From the NCBI GenBank assembly GCA_965249835.1, contig CBDFMY010000003.1, forward strand, positions 1,249,979 to 1,313,978: a DNA stretch of 64,000 nt, given 5' to 3'. The stretch's first letter is position 1, and every line of letters starts with the position of its first letter. The position numbers and the translations under genes are program-made. Under the pieces are notes generated by a model. That model ran no database searches. It was not told the DNA's origin and worked only from the letters and a program-made list of their open reading frames with translations. Shown piece by piece: positions 22,045 through 24,613 of the stretch. The stretch comes from Candidatus Poriferihabitaceae bacterium. GTDB taxonomy: Bacteria > Pseudomonadota > Gammaproteobacteria > Arenicellales > Poriferihabitantaceae.

Positions 22045-24057
22045 ATGACACTGCCAATGATTGAAACACTGCCGATACTGATGGGCGCGCTCGGGTTGTG
22101 CGTCGCCTGGGTGATCTACCGGATGATGCTAAAACGCCCGGCCGGCGAAGACAAAGTGGTCGGGATCGCCGAGCAGATTCACCACGGTGCCATGGTGTTC
22201 ATGCGCACCGAATACAAATACCTCGCAGTATTCGTGGCGGTGGTGGCGGTGCTGATTCTGATTTCCGATCTCGGCATCCACACCATGTTCGCTTTTCTGG
22301 TGGGTGCGGTTTGCTCGGCTTTCGCCGGCTACATCGGCATGCACGCCGCTACTCGCGCCAATGTGCGCACCACCACCGCGGCACAAAAGGAAGGCGCGGC
22401 GGCGGCACTGACCGTAGCGTTTTACGGCGGCTCAGTCATGGGCTTGTGCGTGGCTGCCATGGGATTGTTGGGGCTTGGCTTGCTGTATTGGCTTTACGGC
22501 GGCGACCCGCATACCGCCCATGTCATTCACGGCTTCGGCATGGGCGCGTCTTCAGTGGCGTTGTTCTCCCGCGTCGGCGGCGGCATCTTCACCAAGAGCG
22601 CCGATGTCGGTGCCGATCTGGTGGGCAAAATTGAAGTCGGAATCCCCGAAGACGACCCGCGCAATCCGGGGGTAATTGCCGACAATGTGGGTGATAACGT
22701 CGGCGATGTGGCCGGCATGGGCTCGGACATTTTCGAATCCTATTGCGGTGCCATGATCGCCTCCATCGCCATCGCCGCGACCCTTTCGCCGGCCGTGCTG
22801 GCGGCCATCGGCGCGCGAGAAGCGTTGATGTTCCTGCCGCTGGCGTTGGCTTCGGTGGGCATGCTGTGTTCTATCGGCGGTATTCAACTGGTGCACCTGA
22901 ACAGCAAAAAATCCCCCGAACTGGCATTGCGCATCGGCACCATCGGTGCTTCGGTGTTGTTCATCATCGCGGCACTGGCGCTGATTTTGTCGCTGGAAAT
23001 CAGCATCAATGTGTGGGGCGCGGTGCTGGTGGGCGCCGTCGGCGGCATCGGCATCGGCCTGATTACCGAATACTACACCGCCGGAAAACCGGTGCGCGAC
23101 ATCGCCAAAAGCGGCGAAACCGGCCCGGCCACGGTGATGATCGCCGGCCTCGCCGTAGGCATGGAGTCGGTGGTGGTGCCGCTCTTGATTATCAGCGCCA
23201 TCATCCTCTCCGCCAGCGCGCTCACCGGACTATATGGCGTTGGCATCGCCGCCGTGGGTATGCTGGCGACGGTCGGCATCACCATGGCCATTGACGCATA
23301 TGGACCGGTGGCCGACAACGCCGGCGGTATCGCCGAGATGTCCGGTCTGGGCGAGGAAGTGCGCACCATCACCGACTCGCTGGACGAACTCGGCAACACC
23401 ACCGCCGCCATCGGCAAAGGTTTCGCCATCGGTGCCGCAGCACTGGCGGCACTTGCCATTATCTCCGCGTTCATCGAAACCGTGACGCATCTCAACGCCG
23501 ACTTCGCGCTGGAATTGAGCAATCCGCAGGTATTGGCGGGGATGTTTATAGGCGGCATATTCCCATTTCTGGTTTCCAGTATCACCATGAACGCCGTGGG
23601 TGCCGCCGCATTTGAAATGATTCATGAAATTCGTCGGCAGTTCCGCGAAATTCCGGGGCTGATGGAAGGCACCGCACGCCCCGATTCGGAGCGATGCATC
23701 AACATTGCCACGCGTGCCGCGCTAAAAAAGATGATCCTGCCCGGCGTGCTGGCGGTGGCGGCACCGCCGGTCGTCGGCTTCGGTCTGGGTGCCGAAGCGT
23801 TGGGCGGCATGTTGAGCGGCGCACTGCTCGGCTGCGTGTTGATGGCGCTGACCATGGCCAACGCCGGCGGCGCCTGGGACAACGCCAAAAAATATGTGGA
23901 GAAAGGAAACCTCGGCGGCAAAGGCTCGGATGTTCACGCCGCGACCGTGGTCGGCGACACCGTCGGTGACCCGTTTAAGGATACCTCCGGCCCGTCGATG
24001 AACATCCTTATCAATGTCATGGCGATTGTCAGTTTGGTGATTGCGCCGTTGTTGTAG
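22045..24057 (+). CDS. hppA: Membrane-bound proton-translocating pyrophosphatase
   Basis: 670 aa polytopic protein with [46 protein letters not shown] signatures. Confidence 0.95.
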
Positions 24058-24058
24058 G
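24022..24058 (+). repeat. 37-bp direct repeat, copy 1 (3' end of hppA including stop)
   Basis: gcgattgtcagtttggtgattgcgccgttgttgtagg is identical to 24577-24613. Confidence 0.95.
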
Positions 24059-24089
24059 TTGAGAAAATCGCAATGTGGAGAGATTTGTC

Positions 24090-24557
24090 ATGACAGGAAA
24101 AATTATCAACCACCACTACACCGAATGCGGATTGCCGAATGTGTGGATTCGGTGTCGTCAGATAATTGATGATGCCGGAGAAAAGGCAATCATCATTTCC
24201 AATATCGGGAGTTTGCATAAATCAATCGCACACAAAATCGTAGTCGCCGATGGCGCTTTGACTGGTGCGGAAATAAAATTTCTGCGCTCCGAGATGGGTT
24301 GGACGCAAGCACAACTGGCCGAGATTGTGCACTGCCAACGGCTGACCATTTCCCGCTGGGAGAACGGCGAAAGCACAATCAACGGCGCGGCCGATTCATT
24401 CATCCGCATGCTGGCGATCGATAAACTAAAACTCAACAAACTCGCCGCGGAAAAGATCAGCCGCAAGTATAAAAATGTGAGTAACGAGAAATCTCGGAAG
24501 AAAATACCTATTCAAATCGGCGGAGTAAATGTAGCGCGTTGTCGGTTGGCGGCTTAA
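24090..24557 (+). CDS. XRE-family HTH protein with MqsA-like antitoxin architecture (no adjacent toxin)
   Basis: [39 protein letters not shown] (HTH_3-type). GGAGA lies 8 nt upstream of the ATG at 24090. AT-rich; bracketed by the 37-bp repeats. Confidence 0.65.
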
Positions 24558-24576
24558 GGATTAGTTGCGTGGAGTA

Positions 24577-24613
24577 GCGATTGTCAGTTTGGTGATTGCG
24601 CCGTTGTTGTAGG
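24577..24613 (+). repeat. 37-bp direct repeat, copy 2
   Basis: Identical to 24022-24058, 555 bp downstream. Confidence 0.95.

Follow-up and report, generated by a model that had tools for sequence, protein, structure and literature searches.

How does a housekeeping gene come to have its last codons standing twice in the chromosome, the second time as a perfect copy half a kilobase downstream of the gene? This question is raised by a stretch of 64,000 nucleotides (the window, to which all coordinates refer unless stated otherwise) from Candidatus Poriferihabitaceae bacterium, an uncultured sponge symbiont of the Arenicellales (GenBank assembly GCA_965249835.1, contig CBDFMY010000003.1, positions 1,249,979 to 1,313,978). 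The gene is hppA, encoding a membrane pyrophosphatase, and between its own end and the copy lies a single gene for a helix-turn-helix (HTH) protein. A first-pass annotation had described this gene as a 555-bp insert that arrived by att-type (attachment site) or homology-driven integration. We arrive at a probability of roughly 0.6 for the following answer: the two copies are the scar of a recombination in the interval from hppA to the convergent gene pfk, in which cassettes were joined without an integrase, with one end anchored by homology and the other end illegitimate. Scars of this kind have been described before; added interest comes from the sharing of cassettes by co-resident sponge symbionts, a joint that was remade repeatedly and the repeated loss of a toxin gene with retention of its antitoxin.

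The second hppA end and the region up to pfk

The 37-mer GCGATTGTCAGTTTGGTGATTGCGCCGTTGTTGTAGG is found at 24022-24058 and at 24577-24613 on the forward strand, with 0 mismatches between the copies, and, as originally reported, it is made up of the final 11 hppA codons with the stop. The whole window was searched on both strands with at most 3 mismatches allowed; it contains no third site, and none of the shuffled controls (0/100) had two matches. The exact 37-mer gave 0 matches among bacterial genomes sampled at one per species, a result that is uninformative on its spread as the species is unrepresented there. Exact-protein look-ups with the window's hppA and HTH products, and with two proteins of the qmoB locus described below (those of the qmoB insert and of a methyltransferase-HNH gene), returned no record, and near-identical relatives were used instead.

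The gene itself (22045-24057, forward strand) is an open reading frame (ORF) for a pyrophosphatase of 670 aa (NCBIfam NF001961, 1084 bits) and forms the conserved left flank of a cassette hotspot. Copy 1 is its working 3' end, consisting of the 11 codons, TAG and one additional G. Copy 2 is a non-coding relic of the hppA tail at the left end of a cassette with a zeta toxin gene, and it is colinear with the true hppA end of a related contig, L083. The 518 nt between the copies hold one intact ORF (24090-24557), and neither the ORF list nor profile searches revealed a toxin ORF or a recombinase there. The GC content between the copies is 0.475, against 0.61 in hppA. Since the low GC (0.39-0.48) continues beyond copy 2, to about 26800, the foreign DNA comprises the entire 2.75 kb from hppA to the convergent pfk and not only the 555-bp unit. 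In distant gammaproteobacteria, the convergent pfk follows directly after hppA with a gap of only ~50 nt.

A resident antitoxin gene whose toxin was deleted

The ORF between the copies (24090-24557, forward strand) encodes an MqsA-like HTH protein of 155 aa (Pfam HTH_3/HTH_19). The likeness to MqsA is partial: the TIGR03830 model (MqsA family, CxxCG_CxxCG_HTH) scored 51.8 bits, under its cut-off of 61.8, and aligned over profile positions 36-126 only, and the CxxC zinc-finger pairs were absent throughout a full-length alignment of 24 sequences (the HTH protein and 23 homologues). With neither the score nor the two CxxC pairs of the family, the protein would not qualify as an MqsA member. An identity as the VC1465 Xer-activation factor was rejected as well, the NCBIfam score of 23.7 bits (cut-off 70) being taken as generic HTH similarity.

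A different partner was indicated by a neighbour survey, for which 80 genomic loci encoding HTH homologues were fetched. In 58/80 a DUF4258 ORF lies immediately 5' of the HTH gene, usually overlapping its start, and these upstream ORFs terminate in ..IKI[IV]TVMW.D.. at the protein level. Because a DUF4258 toxin precedes the HTH gene in these loci, the HTH protein is predicted to be the antitoxin of a type II DUF4258/HTH pair in which the toxin comes first.

In the window this toxin is no longer there. The close relative L167 (a 3.98-Mb contig from a sponge metagenome) carries hppA, the same 13-nt spacer, an intact DUF4258 toxin gene (111 aa; Pfam 3.2e-11) and the HTH gene, and compared to it the window is short by exactly 368 nt, with the deletion junction at 24069-24072. 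Left in place on the forward strand are the native post-hppA spacer GTTGAGAAAATCG (24058-24070), common to L167, and 23 nt of the toxin gene (24071-24093), which in the alignment with L167 comprise its last six codons (MWRDLS) and a TGA that overlaps the antitoxin ATG. The HTH gene thereby starts 32 nt past the hppA stop. It is an orphan antitoxin of the DUF4258/HTH family, without the adjacent toxin that makes up the pair. The earlier statement that only an HTH gene, and no toxin ORF or recombinase, lies between the copies was correct for intact genes but missed this relic. A longer relic of 11 codons (24058-24089) had been considered too; by comparison with L167, its first 13 nt are native spacer, which leaves no more than the final 6 codons as toxin sequence. 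Just 5' of the toxin gene, the palindrome GTATCATTTTGATAC is present in two distant genomes, L167 (3645-3662 of that contig) and L087, and probably serves there as operator for the promoter of the toxin-antitoxin module; in the window it was lost with the 368-nt deletion.

The same 368-nt deletion is found in L001, L002, L084 and L165. Between subclades of the window's clade the HTH gene has a dN/dS of 0.23-0.29, which points to purifying selection on the antitoxin. No toxin paralogue that might explain the retention of the antitoxin was found elsewhere in the window. The order hppA-(toxin)-HTH-pfk recurs in six other species-representative genomes of the Arenicellales, namely L085, L086, L087, L089, L095 (= L004) and L099, and the HTH gene has this place throughout the window's clade. 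The toxin is intact in L087, L099, L004 and L167 and deleted, with differing boundaries, in L085, L086 and L089. On the basis of these boundaries the toxin beside hppA appears to have been lost independently at least four times (L085, L086, L089 and the window's clade), and the HTH antitoxin is intact every time.

Within the window's clade the HTH gene has a dS of 0.30-0.37, of the same order as the 0.22-0.23 of hppA and somewhat above it, so the HTH gene is at least as old at this site. What we call cassette 1, the toxin/HTH module, is a long-term resident directly 3' of hppA. The description of the HTH gene as a fresh 555-bp insert does not survive this comparison. An ancestral HTH gene, with both copies in all lineages, was in fact named by the first-pass annotation as the finding that would speak against an insertion, and the first half of it applies to the six species mentioned.

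A zeta/DUF4268 cassette shared between lineages

To the right of copy 2 the window carries a second cassette with three ORFs on the forward strand. The first (24690-24866) is a small ORF of 58 aa, the presumed antitoxin partner of the zeta toxin; L001, L083, L084, L167, L168, L085 and L090 likewise have it immediately 5' of the zeta gene, and profile searches of Pfam and NCBIfam gave no match to an antitoxin or other family. The second (24932-25630) encodes a zeta-toxin family kinase of 232 aa (Pfam Zeta_toxin, 117 bits), and the third (25645-26607) a DUF4268 protein of 320 aa (Pfam DUF4268, 5.5e-34), which scored as candidate defence system PDC-S11 in PADLOC (1.8e-110) and has a NucS-like N-terminal region. 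The repeat families D14 and D15 were considered as paralogues of the 58-aa ORF and the HTH gene; they lie inside unrelated genes and were dismissed as chance matches. The right flank of the hotspot is pfk (26809-28062, reverse strand; Pfam PFK), encoding a phosphofructokinase of the pyrophosphate-dependent type.

The empty site with a single 37-nt gene end, which had been proposed as a check, exists. Contig L083 (3.03 Mb, circular; its zeta protein is named Candidatus Spongiihabitans sp. at NCBI) and the related contig L168 have hppA with a single tail, followed by the small ORF, the zeta toxin and pfk, without an HTH gene; the DUF4268 gene is present in L083 only. The spacer from the hppA stop to the small ORF measures 77 nt in both, equal to the spacing after copy 2 in the window. 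Window positions 24577-28449 are colinear with 5651-9521 of L083, and the alignment begins 36 nt before the L083 hppA stop. Over 24614-27000 merely 37/2387 positions differ (98.4% identity), with 0 differences over the 654 nt of 25575-26228, and the last ~200 nt of pfk (26809 to about 27005) still belong to this common tract. At 27010 the identity breaks sharply: 27050-28449, which covers the rest of pfk and beyond, is 76% identical, and hppA of the window and L083 are 79% identical with a dS of 0.96. Considering the near-identity of the cassette next to hppA and pfk sequences at 76-79%, cassette 2 was exchanged recently between two clearly different lineages, with bounds at about the last 31 nt of hppA and the last 200 nt of pfk.

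A second case is provided by L001, a strain that shares 97-99% identity with the window. Over the right part of the cassette and the pfk 3' end, L001 matches L168 with 96-100% identity, and L001, L168 and L083 come from one sample. The cassette of L084, which belongs to the window's clade, is 82-90% identical to that of the window, and this divergence suggests that cassette 2 has also been present in the clade for some time. Because cassette 2 directly follows hppA in other genomes, its natural left flank is an hppA tail, and the second tail in the window can be assigned to cassette 2 on this comparison. The first-pass annotation had given the role of variable element to the HTH gene; the part that varies and was recently exchanged is the cassette with the zeta and DUF4268 genes beyond copy 2, to which the second tail belongs.

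The joint between the two cassettes varies among strains

The sole novel junction of the window is the one at which the end of cassette 1 is joined to hppA sequence 37 nt before its stop. The other two exist separately, hppA next to the toxin/HTH module in L167 and L087, and hppA next to the small ORF in L083, L168 and L004. At the novel junction the window has a post-HTH spacer of 19 nt, GGATTAGTTGCGTGGAGTA (24558-24576, forward strand), followed by the 37 perfect bases of the hppA tail. Of these 19 spacer bases 14 match the spacer of L084 and L167, including an exact 10-mer; the spacer is absent from L001. In L084 and L167 the 19-nt spacer after the HTH stop leads into 15 nt left over from the HTH end and then ~20 nt that resemble the hppA tail. 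L002 and L166 have a 20-nt relic only, L001 has an 8-nt filler, ATAAACAC, in front of a 93-nt tail that lacks 4 nt and carries three substitutions, and in L165 the HTH gene is fused directly to the DUF4268 gene. The 15-nt relic, CGGTTGGCGGCCTGA, which is located within 8511-8560 of L084 and 4466-4510 of L167, repeats the 3' end of the HTH gene after its own stop and as such is a gene-end duplication signature on a smaller scale. A further peculiarity of L165 is that its hppA was called at 651 aa, with a run of A (3795-3810 of that locus) one base shorter than in the window, which reflects either an error of the assembly in the homopolymer or a true frameshift of the gene.

The polymorphism is also seen in four sequencing runs, X1-X4, which were examined as contigs. 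In X1 the joint occurs in two forms, that of the window and that of L001, and X4 holds the form with the intact toxin. A further sequence in X1 continues directly past the hppA stop with TTTTGGGAG... In X1-X3 loose ends were found at 24057 and 24612, where some contigs run past the hppA stop into TTTTGGGAGATAAATGCTTAACATTTTGCT, a continuation that is present in no fetched locus and indicates a further allele at the hotspot.

Where did the fresh tail come from? Copy 2 differs from the tail of the L083 type at 24579, 24582 and 24613, and an L083-like donor was rejected for the visible part of it. As the copy has the hppA variants of the window's clade and not those of L083 and L168, its source would be the resident hppA or the genome of a conspecific. 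With the resident gene as source, no incoming DNA is required: the hppA tail 555 nt upstream could have overwritten an older, decayed relic by ectopic gene conversion, template switching or unequal exchange between sister chromosomes. For the origin of this perfect copy such an intragenomic event is a serious rival. It agrees with the identity of copy 2 to the window's own tail and with the old spacer of the L084/L167 type, which was kept in the window, so that only the stretch after it was replaced; in addition, short similarities occur at the edges of this stretch (left, GCGGTTGGCGG versus GCGATTGTCAG; right, TTATTGTAGG versus TTGTTGTAGG). We nevertheless regard it as unlikely, given that the homologies usable for conversion amount to merely ~10 nt, that the joint in L001 arose independently, with its filler and a tail that carries the deletion and substitutions relative to its own hppA (within the 37-mer part it reads ATT where the gene reads ATC), and that the adjoining cassette was clearly exchanged between genomes. 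The first creation of the tail relic is left unexplained by this account as well.

The variation among strains also bears on the possibility that copy 2 has been kept for a function of its own, as terminator of the HTH gene or as promoter or operator of the zeta operon, its identity then reflecting selection. A weak terminator-like hairpin of 5 pairs is predicted in both copies, and copy 2 is perfect though neighbouring non-coding bases differ at several positions between strains. Hairpins of this type are no more frequent than in shuffled sequences (2 observed, 1.3 expected), and a scan of 23800-24950 gave no sigma-70-like promoter and only terminator-like hits that were no better than in shuffles. 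The stretch is decayed in L084 and L167, absent in L002, L165 and L166 and altered by the 4-nt deletion in L001, with the HTH gene intact in all of them and the zeta gene intact wherever present. In L083 the same bases are plain hppA coding sequence. We thus find it hardly credible that a function preserved the copy.

A longer duplication at qmoB

A recurrent insertion route had been suggested on the basis of a second gene, qmoB (33505-35811), and the likeness was confirmed. The last 331 nt of qmoB (35481-35811, ending exactly at the stop codon) are repeated at 37536-37866 with 2 mismatches over the 331 nt, in the same orientation on the forward strand. The insert between the two copies (35812-37535) has a GC content of 0.41 and carries a Type II DNA methyltransferase gene (35906-36808; PADLOC MTase_II, 1.2e-31) and an ORF of 196 aa (36805-37395) without a family match. 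A methyltransferase-HNH gene (38019-39218) follows copy 2. In run X4, which represents a sister population, the insert has a depth of 16, against about 1177 for qmoB, and the end of qmoB is joined almost directly to the methyltransferase-HNH gene. The sister population therefore represents the empty qmoB site, with the insert nearly absent. As a shared signature the two duplications support a recurrent route.

Two modification-type cassettes are stacked at this place within a sulfur-oxidation operon, hdrC/hdrB-like genes following 38019-39218. A repeat of ~100 nt occurs at 31999-32105 and 45797-45895 (89-94% identity), one copy lying just 5' of qmoA.

With both loci at hand, att-type integration can be judged. 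Under this explanation an integrase acting in trans would have inserted an element at the hppA 3' end, the 37-mers would be attL and attR, and most of the element would have been lost since. Direct repeats of a gene 3' end are typical for integrase-mediated insertion, the repeat finishes near a stop codon in the manner of tRNA att sites, and a gene for the tyrosine recombinase XerC (20903-21859) is situated just 5' of hppA. This xerC is part of the conserved housekeeping arrangement dapF-DUF484-xerC, and the hppA-pfk interval (~2.75 kb in the window) was free of integrases and transposases in every one of more than 10 related loci. The repeats measure ~20, 37 and 93 nt at hppA and 331 nt at qmoB, their left junctions differ, one of them contains a filler, and a constant core is lacking. 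Furthermore, the exchange tracts end at varying points within pfk and the cassette, as homologous recombination would give, and the HTH gene is ancestral at its position. A tandem-att model would call for one more hppA tail, in degenerate form, where the low-GC DNA ends on the right; it was sought and rejected, the best local scores being at chance level only. Finally, no circle junction at the 37-mer was found in the contigs of the four runs, which is weak evidence, since contigs show presence and not absence and 37 nt exceeds the assembler word length. The variable repeat lengths and left ends, the homology on the opposite side, the tracts that end inside pfk and the cassette and the lack of integrases and transposases make a site-specific integration very improbable. 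From the original interpretation, the duplicated gene end and its homology-driven, integrase-free origin are retained and the att-type variant is dropped.

A possible route

How, then, could the joint have been formed? According to the reading that we favor, the hppA-pfk interval of sulfur-oxidising sponge symbionts (Arenicellales) hosts addiction and defence cassettes. Cassette 1 is resident after hppA, and a 368-nt deletion in the lineage of the window removed its toxin. The joint would have been made by a recombination with two unlike ends, by homology at one of them, on the cassette 2/pfk side or within hppA, and by microhomology or with filler bases at the illegitimate one, with the result that both cassettes were retained and the hppA tail was doubled. 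A selective filter may have contributed: recombinants that dropped the resident toxin-antitoxin module would be killed, and scars in which the antitoxin is retained would be enriched. That the repeats stop at the stop codon has a simple reason: conservation reaches as far as the gene does, and variable cassettes follow it. The sequences themselves show the anatomy of the locus, the deletion of the toxin, the empty site, the recent sharing of cassette 2 between lineages, the polymorphism of the joint and the lack of recombinases. We infer the molecular route (transformation or some other entry of DNA), the direction of the transfer and the selective filter from the comparison of the loci.

Several observations weigh against this reading. 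The donor of the fresh tail was not found, and the genomes recovered from the window's clade include none with cassette 2 immediately behind hppA. The 93-nt copy of L001, like copy 2 of the window, carries the hppA variants of the window's clade and not those of L083 and L168. Copy 2 is perfect, whereas the equivalent stretch of L084 and L167 is only ~55-60% like the hppA tail (by eye), and therefore a second, recent refreshing event is needed. A TfoX_N-like gene nearby, of a family related to competence regulators, appears truncated in the window of this uncultured symbiont. Lastly, X1-X4 are available as contigs only, such that minority forms (deletion products, circles) are neither detectable nor excludable. 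As for the TfoX_N-like gene, the reverse-strand stretch 29562-29717 matches, with 90% identity, only residues 3-53 of a 112-aa TfoX_N-domain protein of L001, and the window gene may on this alignment be truncated.

A more far-reaching version, which we consider possible but hold tentatively, is that the duplicated gene tails serve as portable homology arms, by which cassettes flanked by an hppA end and a pfk end move through ordinary homologous recombination. Together with the killing of recombinants that drop a module, this would constitute an exchange system without a recombinase. If so, cassettes could enter any co-resident symbiont that has hppA and pfk, even at ~20% divergence, and leave the resident antitoxin undisturbed, and a shared pool of defence and addiction genes would be maintained within one sponge microbiome.

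Relation to known systems

Insertions of restriction-modification genes with a long target duplication and without mobility genes have been described (Nobusato et al. 2000; Furuta, Abe & Kobayashi 2010, PMC2853133). In this class, direct repeats of more than 30 bp correspond to a single-copy target in a genome with the empty site, and such repeats are found here with 37 nt in the window, 93 nt in L001 and 331 nt at qmoB. The hppA locus likewise has an insert below 20 kb without mobility genes, and it shares with the class the variable repeat length and a small, low-GC insert with an addiction-type module. Inserts of the class contain both restriction and modification genes, whereas the cargo at hppA consists of toxin-antitoxin and defence-candidate genes. 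A further difference is that the hppA repeat separates two stacked cassettes and was remade several times in close strains. In the Haemophilus cases, the repeats overlap the gene 3' end by just 2-15 bp (PMC2853133), a weaker gene-end position than that at hppA. The qmoB locus, with its Type II methyltransferase insert and 331-nt repeat, fits the class closely, the 196-aa partner being the ORF without a family match.

Homology-facilitated illegitimate recombination (HFIR; de Vries & Wackernagel 2002; Prudhomme et al. 2002; Meier & Wackernagel 2003, cited via PMC5361080; PMC3240628) combines a long homologous anchor with an illegitimate end at microhomology or filler bases and places foreign DNA beside a conserved gene without a dedicated recombinase, which would account for the situation at hppA. 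With respect to its two ends, we found long, near-identical homology on the cassette/pfk side and differing left joints (the filler ATAAACAC in L001). HFIR was established by experiments on laboratory strains capable of transformation or conjugation, whereas here it is deduced from a genome comparison of uncultured symbionts. A displacement of the HFIR type that leaves orphan immunity genes has been proposed for type VI secretion system (T6SS) arrays of Vibrio, with the same logic of counter-selection, by Kirchberger et al. 2017 (PMC5361080).

The arrays of T6SS, Rhs and contact-dependent inhibition (CDI) modules (Kirchberger et al. 2017, PMC5361080; Jackson et al. 2009) are similar in that modules stack 3' of a conserved gene, the protective partner outlasts the toxic one and leftover 3' gene ends lie between the modules. 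They differ in that hppA is a housekeeping enzyme without a variable toxin C-terminus, that the duplicated end is that of the core neighbour, and that the modules are classical type II pairs. Concerning these pairs, the DUF4258-HTH module resembles MqsR/MqsA in the toxin-first order, the ATGA overlap, the C-terminal HTH_3 domain and an N-terminal domain that can be aligned to MqsA models; it departs from it by the lack of CxxC cysteines, the score below the cut-off, DUF4258 instead of MqsR as partner and the deletion of the toxin in the window. The zeta module can be compared to epsilon/zeta (PezAT-like) systems by its Zeta_toxin match of 117 bits and the constant small upstream ORF, which matches no antitoxin family.

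Implications and other repeats

The locus illustrates, for uncultured sponge symbionts, how small cassettes with addiction and defence genes are stacked beside core metabolic genes and exchanged there without integrases or transposases. The exchange is both recent and recurrent, as for each of two strains of one lineage a nearly identical cassette is present in a different strain of the second lineage from the same sample, between flanks that are saturated at synonymous sites. At the same time the locus records the decay of a toxin-antitoxin module by repeated loss of the toxin and retention of the antitoxin. For annotators it implies that short perfect copies of gene ends beside low-GC genes are to be read as recombination scars and not as att sites or notable pseudogenes.

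Dispersed repeats of 40-140 nt, both direct and inverted and with arms up to 99-100% identical, are located at 13951-14190, 45160-45710, 48490-48617, 54232-54851, 56139-56258 and 58504-58931, and this family resembles intergenic elements of the repetitive extragenic palindrome (REP) or miniature inverted-repeat transposable element (MITE) type. At 12563-12843 a unit of ~90 nt is present in three tandem copies that are 92% identical.

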